Shown piece after piece: positions 2,785-14,588 of a stretch of DNA of 64,000 nucleotides (position 1 is the first letter of the stretch; each line of letters begins with the position of its first letter). Under the pieces are notes generated by a model. The model saw only the letters and a program-made list of their open reading frames with translations. It ran no database searches and was not told the DNA's origin. The translations under genes and the position numbers were made by a program. Source of the DNA: Candidatus Multivoradales bacterium (GTDB taxonomy: Bacteria; Acidobacteriota; Thermoanaerobaculia; Multivoradales; JAHEKO01); assembly GCA_965223855.1 (NCBI GenBank), contig CBDCXM010000009.1, forward strand, positions 1,536,001-1,600,000. The letters are read 5' to 3'.

Positions 2785-3594
2785 ATGGACTTCGACTTCC
2801 GGGAATGGCTCCATCTCCTGACGCGCTGGTTCCACGTCGTCGTCGGGATCATGTGGATCGGCCAGACGTACCTCTTCGGTTGGATGGACAGCAACCTCGA
2901 AGAGGCCGAGGAAGACGACGAGATCGAAGGCCGCCTGTGGATGATCCACAGCGGCGGCTTCTACCGTGTCGAGAAGCAGAAGCTGGCGCCCCGTAAGCTG
3001 CCCGCGGTGCTGCATTGGTTCAAGTGGGAGGCGGGGCTCACGTGGCTCAGCGGCTTCCTGCTGCTGTGGGTCGTCTACTACACCGGCGGCGCGCTTCTCG
3101 AGTACGGCTCGGAGATGAGTGTCGCCGCAGGCACCGCGATCGGCATCGGCGTCCTCGTCTTCGGCTGGCTCGCCTACGATCTGCTGTGGATGTCACCGCT
3201 GGGTCGCAAGGGTGTCGGCGTGCCGATCTGCTTCGCCGCCGTCGTCGCCCTCGCCTGGGCCCTCACCCAGGTGCTGAGCGGAAGAGCCGCCTTCATCCAC
3301 ATCGGCGCCCTCTTCGGCACCATCATGGCGGCCAACGTCTTCATGCGCATCCTGCCCGGCCAGCGCCAGCTCGTCGCCGCCGCCGAGGCCGGCACCCCTC
3401 CGGATGCGACGCTGGCCGAGCGTGCCAAGCAGCGCTCCACCCACAACACCTACATGTCGGTGCCGCTGATCTTCATCATGATCAGCAGCCATTTCCCGAC
3501 CAGCTCCTACGGGAGCAAGTACAACTGGGTGATGCTGGGGGTGTTCGTGCTGCTGGGGTGGGCGGGGCGGAAGGTGATGACGCTTCTGCGGTAG
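2785..3594 (+). CDS. puuD: Urate hydroxylase PuuD-like membrane protein (Urate_ox_N domain only)
   Basis: EWLHLLTRWFHVVVGIMWIG, LWMIHSGGFY, LHWFKWEA, GTIMAANV, RSTHNTY, MISSHFP are PuuD motifs. Divergent from xdh. No CxxCH. Confidence 0.85.
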   Translation: MDFDFREWLHLLTRWFHVVVGIMWIGQTYLFGWMDSNLEEAEEDDEIEGRLWMIHSGGFYRVEKQKLAPRKLPAVLHWFKWEAGLTWLSGFLLLWVVYYTGGALLEYGSEMSVAAGTAIGIGVLVFGWLAYDLLWMSPLGRKGVGVPICFAAVVALAWALTQVLSGRAAFIHIGALFGTIMAANVFMRILPGQRQLVAAAEAGTPPDATLAERAKQRSTHNTYMSVPLIFIMISSHFPTSSYGSKYNWVMLGVFVLLGWAGRKVMTLLR

Positions 3595-3688: not shown

Positions 3689-4558
3689 TCAGGAGGATGC
3701 GGGCCGGTGAAGAGCGCGTGTCCAGGACGGACCCAACAACGGATGTTCGGGCGGGAGCTGCTGCAACAGTCGAACGTACTCCGTCTTCGCATGGTCGCCG
3801 AGGTGTGTGCGCGAGGAGCTGGGACGCCAGGTGTTTCGCCAGTCGCCGAGCTGTCGCCTCCAGAATCCGGGGTTCTCGACGAGAGTCTCTCTGGTGTCGA
3901 ACCATATCCGCCGCCCGGCGTGGTGCCACATGGGGGCCTTCAGCAGCCTGGGGATGAAGTCGGCCTTGTTCTGGAAGAGGAGAGTGCGATTGCCGTGGAT
4001 CTCGTTGTAGGCGGCCGAGAACTTCCCGTTTCCGACTGCCGGAGCGCCGAAGGTACAGACGCTGGCGATCCGAGAAGCCGGCTGCATCGAAGCCCACAGC
4101 ACCGCCAGAGCTCCTCCCAGGCTATGCCCCGTTGCGTACACGGGAGTGTCGCGGTCTCCGAGGGCTGTTTCGATGTCTTCCACCAGAGGCTCCAGAGCTC
4201 CAAGGAAGCCGACGTGGATTCGTCGTCCGTCCTCCGTCCGCCGGGTAGCGATCCTGGCGTCCGTGAGGATGTCCTCCAGAACCCCGGGTTCCGTCCCGCG
4301 GAAGGCAAGAAAGCTGTGCGCTTCACTTCGGATCACGAGAGCTTGAGTGCCCTGCTTGTCCAGGAAGGTGAAGGCGCCCTCAGGAGCCCCCATGCGCGCC
4401 TTCTCTTCGTCCTCGTAGGCGAGGGTCGAGAGTTGCGCGAGCAGTACCGCCTGAGAGGGCAAGGGACTCTTCACGGTCAGGATGTTACCCCTTGCGTTCG
4501 TCGCTGGTATTTGTTCGTTGTGAGCGACAGGTGAGTGCGCTGTCTCAGCCGAGGTCAT
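3689..4558 (-). CDS. Lipase class 3 family alpha/beta hydrolase
   Basis: AFRGT, VHxGF-like IHVGF, TGHSLGGA, TFGAPAVG. Start approximate. Confidence 0.85.
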   Translation of the reverse strand: MTSAETAHSPVAHNEQIPATNARGNILTVKSPLPSQAVLLAQLSTLAYEDEEKARMGAPEGAFTFLDKQGTQALVIRSEAHSFLAFRGTEPGVLEDILTDARIATRRTEDGRRIHVGFLGALEPLVEDIETALGDRDTPVYATGHSLGGALAVLWASMQPASRIASVCTFGAPAVGNGKFSAAYNEIHGNRTLLFQNKADFIPRLLKAPMWHHAGRRIWFDTRETLVENPGFWRRQLGDWRNTWRPSSSRTHLGDHAKTEYVRLLQQLPPEHPLLGPSWTRALHRPASS

Positions 4559-4643
4559 CGTCAGGACCTGTCTTCGGGTGCTGACCATCTTCGGGTGCCG
4601 GCCCCTTCTCCGGATCTCCTTCGAGTGTGGGAACACCGGAAAC

Positions 4644-4672
4644 TTGACACGGGGGTCTCCTATCCGCATACT
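4644..4672 (+). promoter_or_regulatory. Sigma70-type promoter
   Basis: TTGACA (4644-4649), 17-nt spacer, CATACT (4667-4672). Confidence 0.75.
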
Positions 4673-4701
4673 GCGCGGCCCTCGTGACGAGGAGTCAAGA
4701 A

Positions 4702-4827
4702 ATGCGCGTGTCCATCAGGCAACGAAACACTTACACCCCGGCCTCGACGGCCGGGCATGGCCTTTTGGCGTTCGATTCAGCGAATCGGTACACGCCGATC
4801 GCGCCCTTGAAGAGGGAAACCAGCTAG
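4702..4827 (+). CDS. Putative 41-aa leader peptide (MRVSIRQRNTYTPASTAGHGLLAFDSANRYTPIAPLKRETS)
   Basis: GAGGAG SD at 4689-4694, ATG 4702, TAG 4825-4827. Lies between the promoter and an intrinsic terminator. Below the ORF-track size cutoff. Confidence 0.55.
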   Translation: MRVSIRQRNTYTPASTAGHGLLAFDSANRYTPIAPLKRETS

Positions 4828-4859
4828 AACCGACACTCGCAGATCCAAAGACTGAGTCG

Positions 4860-4891
4860 AGCCTTCTGGGACCTCCCAGAAGGCTTTTTTT
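4860..4891 (+). terminator. Intrinsic terminator / putative attenuator
   Basis: AGCCTTCTGGGA / TCCCAGAAGGCT stem followed by a T7 run. Confidence 0.85.
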
Positions 4892-5029
4892 GTGCTGAGG
4901 ATCGAAGTGAATGAGAGAAGTGAAACCGACAAACTGATACCACCGGGCCGGCGGTGTGCGAACCTCACGTGATCGTGATCGGTGCCGCACATTCCGTGCA
5001 ACGGGTTCTGACGAAGGTGGGTCGGGCCT

Positions 5030-5093
5030 GGAGGCGTGGCATAGGTAGCCAGACCCCTCGAGGGTCGTGCGGGTTCGAGTCCCGCCGTCTCCC
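5030..5093 (+). ncRNA. tRNA-like element 1 (shortened cloverleaf)
   Basis: Acceptor GGAGGCG/CGTCTCC; arm TGGC-ATAGGTA-GCCA; arm GACCC-CTCGA-GGGTC (5-nt loop); T arm GCGGG-TTCGAGT-CCCGC. Confidence 0.7.
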
Positions 5094-5096
5094 AAG

Positions 5097-5170
5097 AACT
5101 GGCTAGCTCAGACTGGTAGAGCACCGAGCCGTAACTCGGGTGTCGGGGGTTCGAATCCCCCGCCAGGACC
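5097..5170 (+). ncRNA. tRNA-like element 2 (6-nt anticodon loop, 5-bp acceptor)
   Basis: CTGGC-TA-GCTC-AGACTGGTA-GAGC-A-CCGAG-CCGTAA-CTCGG-GTGTC-GGGGG-TTCGAAT-CCCCC-GCCAG. Confidence 0.75.
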
Positions 5171-5194
5171 TCTGTCAAGGGTCTCTTCAGTGCC

Positions 5195-5594
5195 GACCGA
5201 GCCGGGAGCCTGCTGCGGAACCGCTGCCGAAGCCGGACGCGTCGAGCGCTTGCCCCTTCCACTGGGGCGTTTGCCCGGCGAGCCGGCGGAGGAGCGCGCA
5301 ACGGCGCCTTGCAGTGCCGCGAGCAGCCCGAGGCGACGCCTCTGTTCCGCCCTACGTTCGACCGGCCGCCCATCGGGCGGCCACCGGGCGGTGGGCCGAA
5401 AGGGGTCTCCCTCGGGCTCGGGCGGCACTCCGCTACCGGGCGCGTGGCGGTAGCCGCGGGTGGGCTCCCGGCGAGGTCATTTCTCGCCGCGTTCGCCCAG
5501 CAGTCCGAGCCGGTGTTCATGTTGAACGTTTGACGTCGCCGCAGAGGCGGTGGCGTTCGCCCGGCGAGCGAGGGAGCTGACGTCGCCCTCGGTC
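5195..5594 (+). ncRNA. Candidate large structured RNA / structured 5' leader
   Basis: Nested perfect helices 5201-5210/5463-5472, 5313-5320/5422-5429, 5325-5333/5410-5418, 5364-5371/5375-5382. Closing helix 5195-5201/5588-5594. No credible CDS. Confidence 0.5.
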
Positions 5595-5655
5595 TCGGGC
5601 CCGTAGTGAAGCAGCAGTAGCAAGTGTCAGTGCAGTAAGAGAGGAGGTAACAACC

Positions 5656-6756
5656 ATGTTCCGTTGGATCAAGATTCGTGAGTACGAGCGCGGTCTCCTG
5701 TACCGAGACCGGGTGTTCCGGGAGTGCCTGAAGCCGGGGCGCCACTGGATCTTCGATCCGTTCCTGAAGGCGCGGGTCGAGCGGGTTTCGGTGCGCGACG
5801 TCTTCCTCGAGTCGAGCGACCTGGACGTGATCGTCCGCAGTGGGTCGCTCGGCGAAGAGGCGGTCGTGCTCGATCTCGAGGACCACGAGCGCGCGCTGGT
5901 CTGGGTGAACGGTCGTTTCTCGACTGTCCTGCGCCGTGGCCTGTGGGCGGTCTGGACCGTCTTCCACGAGGTCCGTACCGAGGTGATCGACGCCCGCAAG
6001 GTGCGTTTCGACCACCCGGCGCTCGCCGCCGTGCTGGCCGAGGAGAGCTCGCTGCGTCATCTGGACCCGGTGCAGGTCGAGTCGGGCTCGGTGGGCCTGG
6101 TGATGGTGAACGGCCGTCACGAGGCGACGCTCGAGCCGGGCCGCTATGCCCTGTGGAAGGACGTCGCGCGAGTGGGTGTCACGCACGTGAGTCTGCGAGA
6201 GCAGGCGATCGACGTCGCCGGTCAGGAGATCATGACCGCCGACAAGGTCACCCTGCGGCTCAACGCCGTCGTCGTCTTCCGGGTCGTCGATCCGGTGCAG
6301 GCGGTGACGTCGGTCGAGTCGTACGAGCAGGCTCTCTACCGTGAGGCTCAGCTGGCGCTGCGTCGAGTGATCGGCGCTCGCGAGCTCGACGAGCTCCTGT
6401 CCGAGAAGGACGAGGTGGCCGGCGAGCTCGAGGAGCTGGTCCGGCGCCGTGCCGGTGAGCTGGGCCTCCAGGTCGGCTCGCTCGGCATTCGCGACGTCAT
6501 CCTGCCGGGTGACATGAAGGCGATCCTCAACCGGGTGACCGAGGCTCAGAAGGCTGCCGAGGCCGACCTCATCACCCGTCGCGAGGAGACCGCCTCCATG
6601 CGTTCGCAGGCCAACACCGCCCGAATCTTCGACTCGAACCCCGCGCTGATGCGTCTGCGTGAACTCGAGGTTCTCGAGAAGGTGGCGGACAAGGCCGATC
6701 TCACGGTGGTGCTGGGCGAGGGTGGCCTCGCCGAGAGAGTCACCAAGCTGCTGTGA
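5656..6756 (+). CDS. Slipin family protein (SPFH/band 7 with N-terminal repeats)
   Basis: Strong SD GAGGAGG; repeated ExGLL...PGxxW units; QEIMTADKVTLRLN, RDVILPGDMK, RREETASMRSQANTA, LMRLRELEVLE. Confidence 0.9.
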   Translation: MFRWIKIREYERGLLYRDRVFRECLKPGRHWIFDPFLKARVERVSVRDVFLESSDLDVIVRSGSLGEEAVVLDLEDHERALVWVNGRFSTVLRRGLWAVWTVFHEVRTEVIDARKVRFDHPALAAVLAEESSLRHLDPVQVESGSVGLVMVNGRHEATLEPGRYALWKDVARVGVTHVSLREQAIDVAGQEIMTADKVTLRLNAVVVFRVVDPVQAVTSVESYEQALYREAQLALRRVIGARELDELLSEKDEVAGELEELVRRRAGELGLQVGSLGIRDVILPGDMKAILNRVTEAQKAAEADLITRREETASMRSQANTARIFDSNPALMRLRELEVLEKVADKADLTVVLGEGGLAERVTKLL

Positions 6757-6763
6757 GGTTTCA

Positions 6764-6796
6764 CGGGCCGTCCCTTCGGGGGCGGCCCGATTTTCT
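6764..6796 (+). terminator. Hairpin terminator after slipin
   Basis: CGGGCCGTCCC-TTCG-GGGGCGGCCCG followed by ATTTTCT. Confidence 0.65.
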
Positions 6797-6969
6797 GATG
6801 CCGCGCATCGGTGGTCGAGCGTCGATGCGATCCCTCGACGGGCCGCCTCTCCTGACCCCCGAATTCCCCGATTCGCCGACTTGGTTGCCTGGGAGTCTAG
6901 AAAGCGTGGAATCTACTGTGACGGGTAGGGGTGGGCATCAAGCGCGGCTGGGCGGGTAGTATCAGTTTC

Positions 6970-8310
6970 ATGTATCGCCGGATCCTCCTGCGACGCCCTC
7001 TTGCCGTGGTCTCGGTGCTGGGGATGTATCTGGCCCCGCCTGCCGTCGCGGGAGCTGGTACCGTGGCAAGGCCGGTGGGCCCGGAGTTCCAGGTGAATTC
7101 GTACACGACTGGAAGCCAGAGAGACGTAGATATCGGCTCAGATGGAGCTGGAGGGCTGGTGGTAGTTTGGGCAAGTGACGGCTCAGCCGGATCAGATAGC
7201 GACTGGCTGAGTATCCAGGCGCGGCGCTACGACGCTGACGGCTTTCCCGTCGGCGACCAGTTCCAGGTGAACACCTACACCACGTCCGCTCAGACCGCAC
7301 CCTCTGTGAGCGCCAACGGTGGGGGTGGTTTCGTAGTCGTTTGGGATGACCTGGCCGGAGTCAAAGCTCGGGTCTACGACTCGAGCGGATCTCCTCTGGG
7401 AGACGAGTTCGTGGTGAATACCTATGCCGGGGGAAGCCTTCTCACCAGGGCGACTGTGGGCCCGTACATGGGAGGGTTCGTCGTGGCGTGGGAGGGGATC
7501 GGATCACCAGGGACCGATACCGACTTCTTCAGTATTCAGGCCAGAAACTTCCTCCCCGACGGCTCCCCGATCGGAGATCAGTTTCAGGTCAACACCTACA
7601 CGACCGGTGGCCAGGCCTTCGCGAACGTCTTTCTTGACGATGGTGGCTATTGGTTGACCTGGTCGAGCGAAGGGTCGTTCGGGTCGGACTCGAGCGGCCA
7701 TAGCGTCCAGGGGCAGCGCTTTGGTTCGAACGGGAGTCCGATCGGGAACCAGTTCCAGGTGAACGCGTATACCGTGGGCGATCAGAGGAACTCGTCGCTA
7801 TCACGGCTGGGTGAGAACGTCGTGGTCGTGTGGCGAGGACTGGGCGGTGCTGGGGACGACACCGAGGACTGGAGCGCCCAGGGGCGGGTGCTGGACTCTG
7901 AGGGAGTTCCCGTAGGTCAGGAGTTCCAAGTCAACAGTTACACGACATCTTGGCAGGGCTACCCGGTCGCTGCTGAGGCAAGAGGCGGCGTAGCCGTGGT
8001 CTGGACCAGCGTCGGCTCCTGGGGCAGCGACTCAGATCTCTGGAGCATTCAGGGGCAGCTCTACCGTCAAGACGGAGTGCCGAGCGGAAATCAGTTTCAG
8101 GTCAACACCTCCACCCTGGGGACTCAAACACATCCGGCTCTGGCAACCTTGGCCGACGATGGTTTCTTGGTCGTCTGGGCAAGCGAGAGTTCGGGCGCGG
8201 ACGACACCGACTCGTGGAGTATCCAGGGTCAGCGCTTCGAAGGGGTCGGAATCTTCGCCGATGGCTTTGAGACGGGCGACTCCTCATCGTGGTCGACCTC
8301 AGTGCCCTGA
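6970..8310 (+). CDS. Secreted repeat protein (FQVNxYT repeats, probable beta-propeller) with C-terminal IFADGFE motif
   Basis: Signal-like N-terminus; ~7 EF/QFQVNTYT repeats; ends IFADGFETGDSSSWSTSVP. Confidence 0.8.
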   Translation: MYRRILLRRPLAVVSVLGMYLAPPAVAGAGTVARPVGPEFQVNSYTTGSQRDVDIGSDGAGGLVVVWASDGSAGSDSDWLSIQARRYDADGFPVGDQFQVNTYTTSAQTAPSVSANGGGGFVVVWDDLAGVKARVYDSSGSPLGDEFVVNTYAGGSLLTRATVGPYMGGFVVAWEGIGSPGTDTDFFSIQARNFLPDGSPIGDQFQVNTYTTGGQAFANVFLDDGGYWLTWSSEGSFGSDSSGHSVQGQRFGSNGSPIGNQFQVNAYTVGDQRNSSLSRLGENVVVVWRGLGGAGDDTEDWSAQGRVLDSEGVPVGQEFQVNSYTTSWQGYPVAAEARGGVAVVWTSVGSWGSDSDLWSIQGQLYRQDGVPSGNQFQVNTSTLGTQTHPALATLADDGFLVVWASESSGADDTDSWSIQGQRFEGVGIFADGFETGDSSSWSTSVP

Positions 8311-10809: not shown

Positions 10810-10877
10810 GGCCGGCTCAGGCCTTCGCGGTGTCGAGCCGGATCAGCGCTTCGGGTGCGAGATCCGGGACCCCGCGA

Positions 10878-12101
10878 TCAGCCCGGCGGCAGCAGCTCGA
10901 GCACCTCCGCCCGCAGCGCCTCGAACATGTCCTCCATCACTCCCGAGTGGTAGCGCGCCAGCGTGCCGTCGGGAGCGATGACGACGGTGCTCGGCAGGCC
11001 GGGGGAGTGCAGCGCCCGAAAGAACGAGCCGTCGACGTCGAGCGCCACTGGGATCTCGAGCTCTCGGCCGGCGAGGAACTTCGTGACCGCAGCGCTCTGC
11101 TCCTCCATGCCATCGAAGGTCTCGAGAGTGCTGACTGCGTAGACTTCGATCGGGTGGCCGCTCGTCTCGACCCAGGCAGCGAGCTGCTCGATCTCCTCGA
11201 GAGCCGACCAGCAAGGCACGCACCAGGTGGCCCAGAAGTCGAGCACCACGACCGAGCCGCGCAGGTCGGCGAGCTCGACGGCCTCACCGCCGAGGGTGGC
11301 GACTCGGGCTTCCGGGGCGCTGGTACCCAGCGGGTAGGCGCTCGCTTCGAGGGCGGCGAAGTCGGCGACCGCGGTTCGATCGCCGGGGTCGAACGACAGC
11401 CTGGCGGCCAGGTTGGCGGGATCACCTTGCTCGAACACGCCGCTGCCGCTCACCTGATGGCCTTCGGCGCCGACGGTGAGAGCGAAGGCGAGCAGTTCGT
11501 GAGTCTCGGTGTCGAAGGACACGCGAAGGCTGCCGTTGTCGGCCGTCAGCGTGACGGCTCGCGCGACGCGGCCGTCGAGGCTGTCTTCCTCGACCGCCGT
11601 CGGCTCGAGCGGTCCCAGAATGCCGAAACCGAGAGCATCGACGAACGCCTCGCGGCTGCCGGTGACCGCTGCGGCAAGGGGCGGTGCCGGCTTGAGCCCG
11701 ACCTGATCGGCGCCGATCGCCACCAACCCGCTCGCGAAGTCACCTGTCAGCGGAGCCGACACGTAGGAACGCGCCACGTTGAACTGTGTCGCGTACATGC
11801 GACCGCCGGTGGCGACGACGCGCATCAGCGCGGTGCCGGAAGCATCGACCATCGCCATGTACGCGTCGGCGCCGTCGCGACCGTACTCGATCGCCTTCTT
11901 CTCGGTCCGCCCGTCGGGCAGGGTCACCTCGAAGCGCATGGTGCCGGCGAAACGCTGCGCCGTGGAGTACGCCGCGACCGCGTCGGCGAGGACTGTTTCC
12001 GCGTCGGGCGCCCCGGCGCCGTCGGCGCGGACACTGTCGATCGTCAGGACGGCTCCCGCCAGCCCGAGCGAGAGGGCGAGCACTGCCTTCGTGCGTCTCA
12101 T
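10878..12101 (-). CDS. TlpA-family thiol-disulfide oxidoreductase with N-terminal LolA-like region
   Basis: VVLDFWATWCVPC, GLPSTVVI; signal peptide. Confidence 0.85.
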   Translation of the reverse strand: MRRTKAVLALSLGLAGAVLTIDSVRADGAGAPDAETVLADAVAAYSTAQRFAGTMRFEVTLPDGRTEKKAIEYGRDGADAYMAMVDASGTALMRVVATGGRMYATQFNVARSYVSAPLTGDFASGLVAIGADQVGLKPAPPLAAAVTGSREAFVDALGFGILGPLEPTAVEEDSLDGRVARAVTLTADNGSLRVSFDTETHELLAFALTVGAEGHQVSGSGVFEQGDPANLAARLSFDPGDRTAVADFAALEASAYPLGTSAPEARVATLGGEAVELADLRGSVVVLDFWATWCVPCWSALEEIEQLAAWVETSGHPIEVYAVSTLETFDGMEEQSAAVTKFLAGRELEIPVALDVDGSFFRALHSPGLPSTVVIAPDGTLARYHSGVMEDMFEALRAEVLELLPPG

Positions 12102-12182
12102 ACCTATCGAGACGCACCTGTGGCGAGAAGGTTCCCTGTCCGCGCTTCAGTTGGCCTGCCGGCTCTCGAGTTTCGTCGACAC

Positions 12183-14588
12183 CTAGCGTCTGCGGCTCTT
12201 GAGGGCGCTGCACGCCGGTCGGCTCCCTCCGTCGCACGCCTTGCGAAACCATCTGCGTGCCTCGGAAGGGCTCTTGCCGACGCCGCCTTCGCCCTTCTCG
12301 TACATCTTGCCGAGCCAGTAGCAGCCGTGGGGCGAGCCGCCGTTGCAGCCGCGTCGGAACAACTGCAAGGCCCTGGCGGGGTCCTTTCTCACCCCATCGC
12401 CGTTGCGGTAGGCGCCTCCCAGATTCGCGCAGCCCGTGGCGTGGCCCTTGGTGCACCCTTGCTGGAAGAGGCTCGCGGCCTGGCTTCGACTCTCGGGCAC
12501 CCCCTCTCCTTTGTGGTAGTGAATACCGAGCCAGGTGCAGCCGCGGCCGTCTCCTCCATTGCAGCCGCGACGATAGAGTTCCGCCGCTCTCTCGTAGCTC
12601 TTTCGGACGCCGGTACCGTTGCGGTACATCAGTGCCAGGTCCGTACAGCTCTCCGGGGCGCCAGCCTCGCAGCCCTGCCGGTGTCGGTCGAGGTCTCTCG
12701 AGATGCGCTCCGCGTTGGCCAGCTCTCTGCAGCCGCGAGCGTCGCCTCCGTCGCAGGCCTGCCGAAGGAAGTCCACCGACCGCTCGTGGCTCCAGGTCAC
12801 GCCATCGCCCTCGCGGTACCGGAGCCCGAGGCTCGTGCAGGCGTCGGGCTTCCCTTCCGCGCACTCCTCTCGCTGCCTCGCGGCCTCCTGCATGGCGGCC
12901 AGCTTTGCGCAGCCGTCGTCGTATCCTCCGTCGCAGACCCGCCGGTAGAGCTCTTTCGCCGCTGCCTCGCTCGGTTCTACGCCGCGGCCCTGCTCGTATC
13001 GGTTTCCGAGGTTGAGGCAGGCCAGGGGGTCTCCCCGATCGCACGCCTGGCGGAACAGATCGAGCGCCTTCGAGTCGCTCTGCGCCACGCCCTCGCCCGC
13101 CTCGTACAGGGCCGCCAGGTGGGAACAGGCCGGCGAGCTGCCTGCCTCGCAGGCCGACTGAAAGAGTTCCGCTGCCTTCACATCGTCCTCCGGCACGCCC
13201 CTGCCCTGCTCGTGCAGCATTCCCAGGTGGGTGCACCCGAGGGGGTCTCCGCCGTCGCAGCCGCGTTTCAGCATCGCCGCAGCCTTGGACAGGTTGCGGC
13301 TGTGCAGCTCGGCGAGATCGATTCCGATCCTCGAGCAACCCTCTGCGTCGCCGCCCTCGCACCCCCTCCCATAGAACTCGGTCGCCTTCGACCGATCCTG
13401 CAATACGCCCTGGCCCTCCTCGTGCAGGACACCGAGCTTCGTGCAGCCGAGGCCGCTGCCTCCGTCGCACGCTCTTCGGTAAGACTCTGCCGCTCGCGCG
13501 TAGCTCTGCGCCAGACCCACTCCCCCCTCGTAACGAAGCCCGACTTCGGAGCACGCGAGGGGGGCGCCGCCGTCGCAGGCGTCCACAAGCTGCGCGGCCT
13601 CTTCCGCTTCGCCGGCGACGTCCGCCATGCCGGGACTCGCCATGGGGAGTTCGGGAGACGTCGGCATCGCCGCCTTCGGCGAGTCGTACGCCGGTGCGAG
13701 GACCGGCACCTCCGGTTTCGGCGGGAGCCGGAAGACGAAGTCGCCTTCGTCGAGGTCCGGATCCCGGATCGTGCCTCTCTGCGGCGTTTGTCCGACCTCG
13801 TAGTCCACGACCTCGTCGTGAAGATAGGAGCCCAGCTCGGTTCCCGTGACGAAGCCGTCCTCGTTGTAGTCGGCTGCCCCCTCGAGGCCGCGGACGAAGA
13901 GCGGGGTGAAGACGCTCTTGGCCGGAACCGTCTCGTCGTCGCGGCCGGCAGTGATGAACTGCCGTACGGGTAGGAGAGTCTTGGCGGTAATGTGTCGCGG
14001 TTCCTGGTCGCCCTTGACCTTGAAGAGGGTGCCGGCGAAACAACTGTCGAAGACGAACAGCACGTGTTTCGACTCGATCTCGGCGGCGAGCTTCATGACG
14101 GATTCCATGCTGACCGCCATCCTCTTGAACTTTCTCCTCTCGACGGCCGGCAGTGGTGCGTCGGCCGGCACGATGTAGCCGCGCTTGCCGCGTCGCCCGA
14201 GGTTCTCGGAGTGACCGTGACCGGAGTAGAAGATCAGAAGCTGGTGATCGGGAGCGTCGTAGCCGTAGTCATCGACGAAGCCCTCGAGCGCGGCGCTGAG
14301 CTCCCGGCTGTCGGGATTGCGGATGCGGCGTACTTCGAAGCCCAGCTCGGTGAGAGTCGCCTCGACCTGGTCGAGCTCGCTCTGCACCGTTGAGAGCGGG
14401 TCCCAACCCGACGTGTAGTCGCCGACGCCGATGACCAGCGCATACTTCCCGGTGTAGAGCGGAGCCGGAGCCGGCACGGCCTCGACCAGCATCGAGCCCT
14501 TCTCCTGAGCGAGGGCCTGTGAGCAGACACACGCCGCCAACAGGGCGCCCGCAAGCAATGACGCGCCATTCGATCGTCGTTCGAACAT
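12183..14588 (-). CDS. Caspase-family (peptidase C14) protein with Sel1-like repeats
   Basis: YALVIG, FYSGHG, VFDSCF dyad motifs; many ACDGG...C..LG..Y..GxGV repeats; signal peptide. Confidence 0.9.
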   Translation of the reverse strand: MFERRSNGASLLAGALLAACVCSQALAQEKGSMLVEAVPAPAPLYTGKYALVIGVGDYTSGWDPLSTVQSELDQVEATLTELGFEVRRIRNPDSRELSAALEGFVDDYGYDAPDHQLLIFYSGHGHSENLGRRGKRGYIVPADAPLPAVERRKFKRMAVSMESVMKLAAEIESKHVLFVFDSCFAGTLFKVKGDQEPRHITAKTLLPVRQFITAGRDDETVPAKSVFTPLFVRGLEGAADYNEDGFVTGTELGSYLHDEVVDYEVGQTPQRGTIRDPDLDEGDFVFRLPPKPEVPVLAPAYDSPKAAMPTSPELPMASPGMADVAGEAEEAAQLVDACDGGAPLACSEVGLRYEGGVGLAQSYARAAESYRRACDGGSGLGCTKLGVLHEEGQGVLQDRSKATEFYGRGCEGGDAEGCSRIGIDLAELHSRNLSKAAAMLKRGCDGGDPLGCTHLGMLHEQGRGVPEDDVKAAELFQSACEAGSSPACSHLAALYEAGEGVAQSDSKALDLFRQACDRGDPLACLNLGNRYEQGRGVEPSEAAAKELYRRVCDGGYDDGCAKLAAMQEAARQREECAEGKPDACTSLGLRYREGDGVTWSHERSVDFLRQACDGGDARGCRELANAERISRDLDRHRQGCEAGAPESCTDLALMYRNGTGVRKSYERAAELYRRGCNGGDGRGCTWLGIHYHKGEGVPESRSQAASLFQQGCTKGHATGCANLGGAYRNGDGVRKDPARALQLFRRGCNGGSPHGCYWLGKMYEKGEGGVGKSPSEARRWFRKACDGGSRPACSALKSRRR

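Follow-up and report, generated by a model that had tools for sequence, protein, structure and literature searches.

A Band-7/b7a-tRNA-type operon with a proposed leader-peptide attenuator and a proposed RNA partner for its soluble slipin

Burroughs and Aravind (Nucleic Acids Res 2016) reportedly predicted a Band-7/b7a-tRNA module computationally and are said to have placed it among bacterial RNA-repair systems. The rtc operons of proteobacteria are typically under RtcR/sigma-54 control. In leader peptides of the TnaC type, ribosome stalling takes place at a C-terminal proline just ahead of the stop. In its available part, bioRxiv 10.1101/312249 credits Burroughs and Aravind 2016 with predicting an SPFH/Band-7 protein with a cognate tRNA-like RNA, 'b7a-tRNA'. 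The locus described here had been put forward in an initial annotation as the best candidate for an undescribed system, a label withdrawn in view of that earlier prediction of the pairing. No bench test of the Band-7/tRNA-like pairing was found in the literature searched. Supernumerary tRNA arrays are the subject of PMC8421152 (2021), the available portion of which notes an HNH endonuclease neighbour and ascribes regulation to promoter repeats; the terms band 7, stomatin, slipin, SPFH, leader and terminator have 0 occurrences each in that paper.

The window, the whole 64,000-nt stretch of DNA that was analysed, contains at positions 4644-6796 one operon composed of a promoter, a leader ORF, a terminator, a tRNA-containing structured RNA, a soluble slipin and a second terminator. 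The features of the unit and its flanks are as follows.

3689-4669, - strand: flanking class-3 lipase ORF (Pfam)
4644..4672, + strand: sigma-70-like promoter TTGACA-17-CATACT, 10/12 matches
4702..4827, + strand: leader ORF of 41 codons plus TAG (ATG 4702 to TAG 4825-4827), with AGGAG at 4690-4694, 7 nt upstream
4859..4893, + strand: attenuator intrinsic terminator (stem 4859-4886), 12-bp stem and T-run, fold z = -4.98 vs shuffles
4926..5031, + strand: 5' rod domain, a long irregular hairpin closed by an outer stem, covariance model R1, 84.7 bits
5030..5092, + strand: extra tRNA-like element, cloverleaf fold, z = -2.68
5097..5170, + strand: conserved Band-7-associated tRNA-like element (ARAGORN, Rfam tRNA), 6-nt anticodon loop, 5-bp acceptor stem
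~5206..5481, + strand: 3' domain, a rod formed by long-range pairing (closing helix 5208-5217 with 5461-5470) and bearing a side hairpin
5482..5655, + strand: variable linker, with the ribosome-binding site of slipin (GAGGAGG, ~5641-5648) at its end
5656..6756, + strand: soluble slipin/SPFH gene, 366 aa, Band_7 PF01145 E = 4.9e-35 over residues 140-311
6764..6796, + strand: intrinsic terminator closing the unit (stem 6764-6789), 11-bp stem with 10 G-C pairs, then a T-run
6931-8310: flanking ORF without a Pfam family (Pfam search)

The promoter, leader ORF, terminators, non-coding RNA and slipin listed by the initial annotation are all present at or near the positions it gave. Its view of them as one unit also holds: leader ORF, terminator, structured RNA with tRNA mimics and slipin form one conserved unit. 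Since it recurs across phyla, the arrangement is far beyond chance. A search found 433 relatives, and the locus counts given here refer to 80 homologous loci. The promoter is the sole + strand promoter-like site in 4300-7000 in a scan for sigma-70-type sites only, where 0.2 would be expected from shuffles, and TTGAC with a GATAAT-type -10 box is aligned in the window and in three relatives (L003, L005, L006). The non-coding stretch 4890-5655 (~760 nt) lacks the codon-position GC periodicity of the slipin gene (GC3 0.8-0.93), and part of it reaches a GC content of 0.76-0.78 against 0.647 for the whole window. At its end, GGAGG before the slipin ATG is conserved in a 51-sequence alignment.

The leader ORF sits inside the listed open reading frame 4684..4827 and ends ...KRETS-TAG, thus Ser-TAG and not Pro-TAG, 33 nt ahead of the GCCTTC core of the terminator. 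The terminator is conserved in 25 units (24 loci and the window); its stem sequence is kept across phyla, with compensatory changes seen by eye. Positionally equivalent leader ORFs of 26-65 aa are present in 23 of the 24 other terminator-bearing loci. Among the 25 units, 20 leaders have CCC (Pro) before the stop, 21 use TAG and 17 do both, compared with a background of 54 Pro-TAG endings among 1757 long ORFs in the window genome. A strict terminator pattern matched 22 sources, on the + strand, and in 18 of these the leader stop lies 25-34 nt ahead of the GCCTTC core. A Shine-Dalgarno-like GGAGG precedes the leader Pro-UAG in most relatives. As expected of an attenuator, a short translatable ORF thus lies directly before an intrinsic terminator and is kept in relatives. 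Two relatives (L016, L074) carry the same attenuator ahead of multi-kb tRNA arrays leading to the rod and slipin.

Folding eight leaders by minimum free energy, either free or with a ribosome footprint masked at the stop codon, revealed no conserved antiterminator, and the terminator was retained in every fold; antiterminator candidates of 6-7 bp are visible by eye in some loci. The slipin locus holds the genome's single match to the terminator pattern and to each of three profiles (leader, rod and 3' domain). An attenuator shared with the genome's own rtcB was considered and rejected, as each profile or pattern matches the slipin locus alone. No earlier description of this Pro-stop attenuator was found in the literature searched. 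The suggestion that the unit is induced by translation stress survives in part: a link to translation stress is plausible, given a leader peptide whose Pro-stop end keeps a fixed spacing to a conserved terminator; induction itself we infer.

The non-coding part is a three-domain RNA consisting of a 5' rod, a tRNA-like element and a 3' rod-like domain. Covariance model R1 of the 5' rod matches 75 of the 80 homologous loci and the window, and every match is on the strand of slipin. Of the five loci lacking a match, four have less than 350 nt of upstream sequence. In an alignment of 77 sequences, which are inter-related and were fitted to the model, the paired fraction of cells is 96.0%, double changes occur in 13 of 18 pairs and the double-change cells number 202; none of 500 shuffles reaches this, and sliding the partners leaves 27-41% paired. 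For the 3' domain, whose alignment is likewise one of inter-related sequences fitted to the model, 85.1% of the cells of 52 pairs are canonical, compared with 38-46% when partners are slid and 72% in shuffles; its double-change cells number 373, whereas the highest count among 200 shuffles is 158. The 3' domain profile HMM matches 74 of the 80 loci and the window, including 25 loci outside its training set; this 51-sequence version replaced a first nhmmer profile built from five close relatives, which reached only three further loci.

Conservation and covariation upstream of slipin homologs and an Rfam scan had been named in advance as checks on the unit. Both rods recur and covary strongly, and neither has an Rfam family: cmscan with Rfam 15 left 4932-5024 and 5171-5640 without a + strand match at E <= 10, and across the window and the 16 loci scanned no family but tRNA reaches its gathering score. 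An RNA copy in L077 was considered as a stand-alone copy and rejected; it is followed by a truncated slipin start and is therefore a tandem duplication.

ARAGORN labels the conserved tRNA-like element at 5097-5170 'tRNA-???', assigning it a 2-nt anticodon; with the Rfam tRNA model it reaches 38.2 bits, where the gathering score is 29. It is aligned in all 51 sequences. Scores of 38-54 bits were obtained for the slipin-adjacent element in the window and in 11 non-array loci (L003-L006, L010, L019, L022, L034, L037, L056, L067). At least one ARAGORN tRNA or tRNA-like gene lies within 1.5 kb upstream of slipin in 64 of the 80 homologous loci, with none on the opposite strand. In the extra element at 5030-5092 the 7-bp acceptor stem runs directly into the D stem and the anticodon loop has 5 nt; its blastn matches elsewhere in the genome are of T-arm length only. 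Both elements depart from a canonical tRNA, which has a 7-nt anticodon loop and a 7-bp acceptor stem with standard linkers. The two tRNA-like elements had been taken together as a defining feature, which does not extend to 5030-5092, as it is absent from the four closest relatives (L003, L004, L005, L006).

The slipin is modelled with beta repeats at residues 2-45, 69-112 and 136-179, followed by the SPFH core and a long helix at 285-347. Its N-terminus holds two additional copies of the SPFH beta subdomain, giving a triplicated beta subdomain. The SPFH core matches known structures at Z = 15-17, and the top-ranked structure matches are mostly oligomeric SPFH assemblies (stomatin, HflK/C, prohibitin, erlin, flotillin, vault). 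NCBIfam gives sub-threshold HflK/HflC/FloT matches only. The protein had been proposed to be membrane-tethered, but it has no transmembrane segment (highest Kyte-Doolittle 19-aa window 1.35), and the beta strands of the model begin at residue 2 with no N-terminal hydrophobic anchor. No NfeD gene adjoins the slipin, the neighbours being the class-3 lipase and the Pfam-less ORF, and no PADLOC defence-system model matches the slipin or these two neighbours.

Over the whole chain, slipin residues 3-350 match residues 322-711 of MVP with Z = 10.4-11.7 and an rmsd of 7-9 A. Taken alone, the N-terminal repeats are most similar to the first beta subdomain in HflK, erlin and prohibitin, with Z = 5.2-6.0 over 44 residues. 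Specific homology of these repeats to the MVP repeats was considered and set aside as weak, the N-terminal 135 residues alone matching MVP R1-R7 at Z = 3.5. A Foldseek search with the N-terminal fragment gave no match at E <= 0.001.

The same element order, with compensatory changes, is found in Acidobacteriota, Planctomycetota, Hydrogenedentota, Desulfobacterota and Victivallales. Within the phylum, 151 sampled genomes include five with the rod, six with a slipin ortholog and four with both, and neither of two same-family genomes carries the module. The rod is 543 nt upstream of slipin in genome G005 and 344 nt upstream in G083. The RNA domains track this slipin subfamily. In Planctomycetota relatives the unit also contains tRNAs of ordinary appearance, in long arrays. 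There the slipin RNA unit ends long supernumerary tRNA arrays, with ~27 of 74 tRNA matches in one 7.7-Mb genome. HNH endonuclease genes occur near 17 loci.

The unit had been noted as having no RtcB or Ro60 nearby, which is borne out by the genome: its RtcB lies at C9:1019037-1020110, ~517 kb from the window, and TROVE (PF05731) has no match anywhere in the assembly, which is 92.47% complete. An RtcB-family gene is found within 4 kb at four of the 80 loci (L067, L056, L014, L037), and RtcA is found as well in two, L067 and L056, where the order is RNA, slipin, RtcA, RtcB. As RtcB is so close in only this minority of loci, the link to RNA repair rests on them and on the literature.

The anatomy of the unit, its conservation, the RNA structures, the missing membrane anchor and the occasional fusion to rtcA-rtcB or to a spare-tRNA array are directly established. 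Beyond these, we lean modestly towards reading the operon as a single-copy, accessory unit of the Band-7/b7a-tRNA type with a proposed attenuator and a proposed RNA partner of slipin. In such a unit the sigma-70 promoter would drive a short leader ORF with a strong terminator behind it, and ribosome performance at the leader end would set the amount of transcriptional read-through. Read-through would yield an RNA of ~450-550 nt (5' rod, tRNA-like element or elements, 3' rod) together with the mRNA of the soluble SPFH protein. By analogy with Ro60 and its Y RNA and with vaults, the RNA may be the cognate partner of slipin, which would form a ring or cage as expected from other SPFH proteins. 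The resulting RNA-protein particle may act in response to damaged or stalled translation machinery, with RtcB and RtcA working in trans here and in cis in a few relatives. We infer RNA-protein binding, cage formation and the cellular role. A bolder version, offered tentatively, would make the operon a vault/Ro counterpart: an SPFH cage with its own ~500-nt RNA and a leader that senses Pro-UAG termination, serving as an RtcB-independent emergency kit for a damaged translation apparatus, with dozens of spare tRNAs co-transcribed in some phyla.

The ~760-nt stretch might instead be a cis-acting 5' leader only, controlling slipin, for example as a tRNA-shaped sensor or processing signal with no separate RNA partner. 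This would fit the constant placement of the RNA directly upstream of slipin on the same strand, with a linker of 25-256 nt and no consistent terminator between them, the duplicated copy in L077 that again precedes a slipin start, and the strong slipin ribosome-binding site right after the RNA. However, three separately covarying domains totalling ~450 nt are far above the needs of known leaders, and the upstream attenuator already supplies regulation of the slipin unit. The linker to the ribosome-binding site also varies among loci in both length and sequence, so conserved occlusion of that site is unlikely. We consider a purely cis-acting role unlikely overall.

A second group of explanations concerns the tRNA-like elements themselves. 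That they are decoys or spare substrates for tRNA-targeting toxins (anticodon nucleases), with slipin an unrelated passenger, had been suggested earlier in part, and would agree with the kept tRNA shape (38-54 bits in the window and the 11 non-array loci) and with the Planctomycetota relatives, whose unit includes long arrays of tRNAs that look ordinary. The anticodon loop, however, is the least conserved part of the conserved element: among 51 sequences, 40 loops of 7 nt carry 21 different triplets, and the other 11 comprise eight of 6 nt and three of other lengths. With anticodon loops shortened to 5 and 6 nt, the window mimics resemble any target of an anticodon nuclease poorly, and conservation of the rods and slipin is as tight as that of the tRNA-like part, which makes the decoy proposal improbable and argues against the earlier suggestion. 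Less credible still, to the point of being hardly worth entertaining, is a reading of the elements as remnants, whether decayed tRNA genes or integration-site scars, with non-functional spacer for the remainder. The aberrant anticodon loops and the patchy module (5-6 of 151 phylum genomes, neither of the two same-family genomes) would suit decay, yet element order and compensatory changes recur across the five groups from Acidobacteriota to Victivallales, no integrase or repeat signature is found among conserved neighbours, and the covariation already contradicts it.

Relative to the 2016 prediction, the locus and its 80 relatives add that the RNA partner, if it is one, is a large, strongly covarying three-domain RNA without an Rfam family, that the protein is soluble with a triplicated beta subdomain, and that in most cases the unit is a stand-alone one, placed after a conserved Pro-stop leader attenuator. 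At ~2.2 kb, it is a compact, clonable system that bears on the roles of soluble SPFH proteins, on why bacteria keep tRNA mimics and on how cells sense failing translation termination.

Comparison with TnaC, by description only, shows a shared short Pro-stop ORF upstream of a transcription termination signal, whereas termination here is intrinsic and the window copy ends Ser-TAG. Planctomycetota relatives have long supernumerary tRNA arrays like those of PMC8421152, with the slipin RNA unit at the array end, and the HNH neighbour noted in that paper also occurs near 17 of the loci here; the window has no array. Like the vault (MVP with vault RNA), the system has a dedicated small RNA and a soluble protein in which stacked beta repeats are combined with a long helix and an alpha/beta domain of SPFH type. 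The slipin repeats alone fit HflK, erlin and prohibitin subdomains better than MVP repeats, however, and the cage is only predicted here; as the repeats match SPFH subdomains best, the resemblance is therefore an architectural parallel, not demonstrated homology.

The Ro60 (Rsr)/Y RNA/YrlA system, rsr-yrlBA-rtcBA (10.1101/312249 and PMC7790460, in their available parts), shares a modular RNA that joins a presumed protein-binding helical rod to a tRNA-like domain; its gene adjoins that of the protein thought to be its partner and, in some genomes, is connected with RtcB. The window genome differs in having no TROVE protein, and its tRNA-like unit lies beside rods instead of being nested in a terminal stem. 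Against the YrlA model (RF02553) the window scores 26.3 bits, where the gathering score is 69, over model positions 30-81 and parts of two neighbouring elements. The closest likeness is to the Band-7/b7a-tRNA module, which the locus matches: an SPFH protein has a same-strand tRNA-like RNA upstream, and rtcA-rtcB follows in two of 80 relatives. The window differs from it in having no adjoining RtcB, RtcA or RtcR and in its sigma-70-like promoter followed by a leader-peptide attenuator, parts that the 2016 account may include. Its RNA is also far larger than a tRNA, with rods on both sides that the 2016 account may cover.

The slipin gene lies at the end of a unit whose parts are all on the forward strand. 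The source assembly, in which the window is G000:C9:1536001-1600000, spans 4.5 Mb and is 92.47% complete, and the closest protein matches are to Thermoanaerobaculia (Acidobacteriota). The initial annotation described a promoter, a leader ORF, a terminator, non-coding RNA with two tRNA-like elements, a slipin gene and a second terminator. Each of these parts was located, and the observation is confirmed since all are present in order across 4644-6796:

4644-4672, +, sigma-70-like promoter, the sole such site in the area
4702 (ATG) to 4827 (TAG), +, leader ORF of 41 codons with AGGAG 7 nt 5' of the start
4859-4893, +, terminator with a 12-bp stem and T-run, fold z = -4.98 against shuffles
5030-5092, +, second cloverleaf with a 5-nt anticodon loop, from folding
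5097-5170, +, aberrant tRNA detected by both ARAGORN and Rfam
5656-6756, +, Band_7 protein of 366 aa (PF01145, E = 4.9e-35) behind a strong ribosome-binding site
6764-6789, +, second terminator

Codon-position GC periodicity is absent over the ~760 nt separating the first terminator from the slipin gene, where local GC reaches 0.76-0.78 compared with 0.647 window-wide. Downstream of the unit, ORFs of 459 and 1047 aa (6931-8310 and 10830-13973, +) have no Pfam family; the former has a signal-peptide-like start as judged by eye.

Scanning one genome per species yielded 433 slipin-related stretches, of which the best 80 were studied. These share 56-75% identity and come from MAGs of Acidobacteriota, Planctomycetota, Hydrogenedentota, Desulfobacterota and Victivallales; because they are the best 80 of 433, all locus counts are valid for one slipin subfamily only. 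An alignment of the window and its four closest relatives revealed conservation of the promoter, leader ORF and terminator, together with a ~90-nt block, the 5097-5170 element and islands within the GC-rich stretch. The 5030-5092 element is an insertion unique to the window among these five sequences. Spacing and ARAGORN or Rfam calls indicate that two other loci, L016 and L032, likewise carry two tandem tRNA-shaped units 3' of the rod. Within 1.5 kb upstream, ARAGORN made 165 tRNA or tRNA-like calls across 65 of 81 sequences and none on the opposite strand; at least four of the 16 sequences lacking a call have <350 nt of upstream sequence.

The non-coding RNA comprises three domains, a 5' rod, a tRNA-like element and a 3' domain. 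The 5' rod (4926-5031) was matched by nhmmer in 50/80 loci, and a covariance model trained on 50 sequences matches the window and 75/80 loci, on the slipin strand without exception. Copies occur once per locus, L077 excepted, at ~320-710 nt ahead of the slipin ATG; the unmatched loci are L012, L030, L068 and L069, each with <350 nt upstream, and L056. In a 77-sequence alignment, itself fitted to the covariance model, 96.0% of cells are paired (27-41% with slid partners) and double-sided changes occur at 13 of 18 pairs (202 cells), with 0/500 shuffles matching any measure. The 3' domain (about 5206-5481) consists of a long-range rod and a side hairpin, ending 25-256 nt before the slipin ATG across loci. 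Its profile matched the window and 74/80 loci, 25 of them outside the training set. Canonical pairing over the 52 predicted pairs is 85.1%, compared with 38-46% for slid partners and 72% in shuffles, and double-change cells number 373 versus 92-142 slid and at most 158 across 200 shuffles. When the window and 16 loci were scanned against Rfam, nothing but tRNA reached the gathering score, and neither rod was matched even at E <= 10.

In many Planctomycetota loci, a CCCGAGGG motif was noted by eye in the alignment close to each end of the 3' domain. The two CCCGAGGG copies could pair with each other via tandem G-A pairs, or pair between molecules. In L077 the whole RNA is tandemly duplicated (3028-3555 and 6259-6791; 542 nt at 90.6% identity), and just the initial 40 codons of a slipin gene follow the second copy.

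The conserved tRNA-like element (5097-5170) retains the D arm, T arm and anticodon stem. Its acceptor stem is only 5 bp in the window and, from aligned flanks read by eye, several relatives have one of 4-5 bp. Anticodon loop length is 7 nt in 40 of 51 sequences, 6 nt in eight (including the window) and of other lengths in three; the 40 seven-nucleotide loops hold 21 different triplets. The loop is free to vary, and the proposed role of these RNAs as decoys against anticodon nucleases is unlikely. Outside the window, the genome holds a second ARAGORN 'tRNA-???' call of 91 nt (G000:C9:2935044-2935134, minus strand).

With a leader-region profile, the terminator was located in the window and 24 further loci, its stem sequence kept across phyla with compensatory changes. 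In 24 of these 25 units the aligned upstream stop closes an ORF of 26-65 codons, the exception being L031, and a GGAGG-like run lies ~8-12 nt 5' of that stop. Read by eye, the leaders have CCC before the stop in 20/25, a TAG stop in 21/25 and both in 17/25. Under a strict terminator pattern (22 sources), CCC-TAG lies 28-34 nt upstream in 15, CCC-TGA in two and CCC-TAA in one. Across the genome, Pro-TAG terminates 54 of 1757 long high-GC3 ORFs, and TAG 512. A C-terminal proline slows translation termination. The window leader ends in KRETS-TAG, with no proline before the stop. Folding eight leaders did not reveal a conserved antiterminator; the terminator persisted even when the nucleotides that a ribosome would cover at the stop codon were masked. 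The same attenuator stands ahead of arrays of roughly 20-30 tRNA genes in L016 and L074, with the rod 3.2 and 2.3 kb downstream of it, which argues that it governs all downstream parts.

Slipin was modelled with AlphaFold2 from a 32-sequence alignment (mean pLDDT 85.1). The model comprises three five-stranded beta units (2-45, 69-112, 136-179), an SPFH alpha/beta core and a helix at 285-347. The protein had been taken to be membrane-tethered, which is wrong: it has no hydrophobic anchor, the maximum Kyte-Doolittle window being 1.35. Foldseek and VIA-align rank SPFH cores first (Z = 15-17), and the top matches are mostly oligomeric ring or cage entries, namely stomatin, HflK/C, prohibitin, erlin, flotillin and QmcA. 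Alignment over the full model is seen for major vault protein (MVP) chains only (residues 3-350 with MVP 322-711, Z = 10.4-11.7, rmsd 7-9 A). When the N-terminal 135 residues were modelled separately (pLDDT 91.0), the best matches were to the first beta subdomain in erlin, prohibitin, HflK and QmcA, with Z = 5.2-6.0 and rmsd 1.7-2.1 A over 44 residues, against only Z = 3.5 for MVP repeats. Because the SPFH matches are the better ones, the N-terminal extension is read as the SPFH beta subdomain repeated twice more. A weak internal BLASTP self-match (E = 0.004) is consistent with repeat copies. As modelled, the likeness to the vault is architectural only.

The genome does encode rtcB, 517 kb away and without this attenuator, and each RNA part is single-copy. 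This RtcB gene (465 aa) adjoins a divergent ORF with a Phd/YefM antitoxin domain (L001:2594-3169). An RtcB-family gene lies within 4 kb in 4/80 loci, and the order in L067 and L056 is RNA, slipin, RtcA, RtcB. Other neighbours are an HNH endonuclease gene (17/80 loci, e.g. L016:6369-7061), close to units with a tRNA array and slipin, a Ser/Thr protein kinase gene 3' of slipin (8/80), and a PF04308 RNaseH-like gene between attenuator and rod in five loci of one acidobacterial clade (L019:2865-3503, L020, L022 and L023 among them). In L061, from a 7.7-Mb Planctomycetaceae chromosome (G151), ~27 of 74 tRNA matches cluster in a single 4.7-kb same-strand array immediately 5' of rod and slipin (C1:6813399-6818144), scoring 33-65 bits, below most dispersed tRNAs. 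A frequent order in such arrays is Trp-Thr-Arg(CCG/TCG/GCG/CCT)-Cys.

Of 151 genomes sampled from the phylum, five carry the rod and six an ortholog of slipin at E <= 1e-60. Both occur together in four (G000, the window's genome, G005, G083 and G059) and are adjacent in G005 and G083. One genome has a weak rod match only, and in two whose slipins are more divergent (39-46% identity) the stricter filters left no rod match. Given these few carriers, and neither rod nor slipin ortholog in two same-family genomes, the module is accessory and patchy. The cross-phylum similarity suggests that it may have spread by lateral transfer.

We infer the mechanism and function of the unit, and the earlier proposal of one stress-linked RNA-protein unit stands in outline. 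Cyanobacterial L-arrays are tRNA arrays that translation stress induces, and their neighbours include HNH and RtcB genes (PMC8421152); the HNH neighbour is common to both, and that paper mentions neither SPFH nor a leader. An SPFH gene lies within a Pseudomonas rtc locus according to a 2026 paper (PMC13086221). Literature searches joining Band-7, SPFH or slipin with tRNA-like RNA, RtcB, tRNA arrays or RNA repair gave nothing further of relevance. Describing the system as undescribed was mistaken: bioRxiv 10.1101/312249 credits Burroughs and Aravind (2016) with the prediction that a Band-7 protein and a 'band 7-associated tRNA' occur beside RtcB, and describes this RNA as not validated experimentally. 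The unit is of this kind, and differs by its stand-alone arrangement, its control by an attenuator and a three-domain RNA without an Rfam family.
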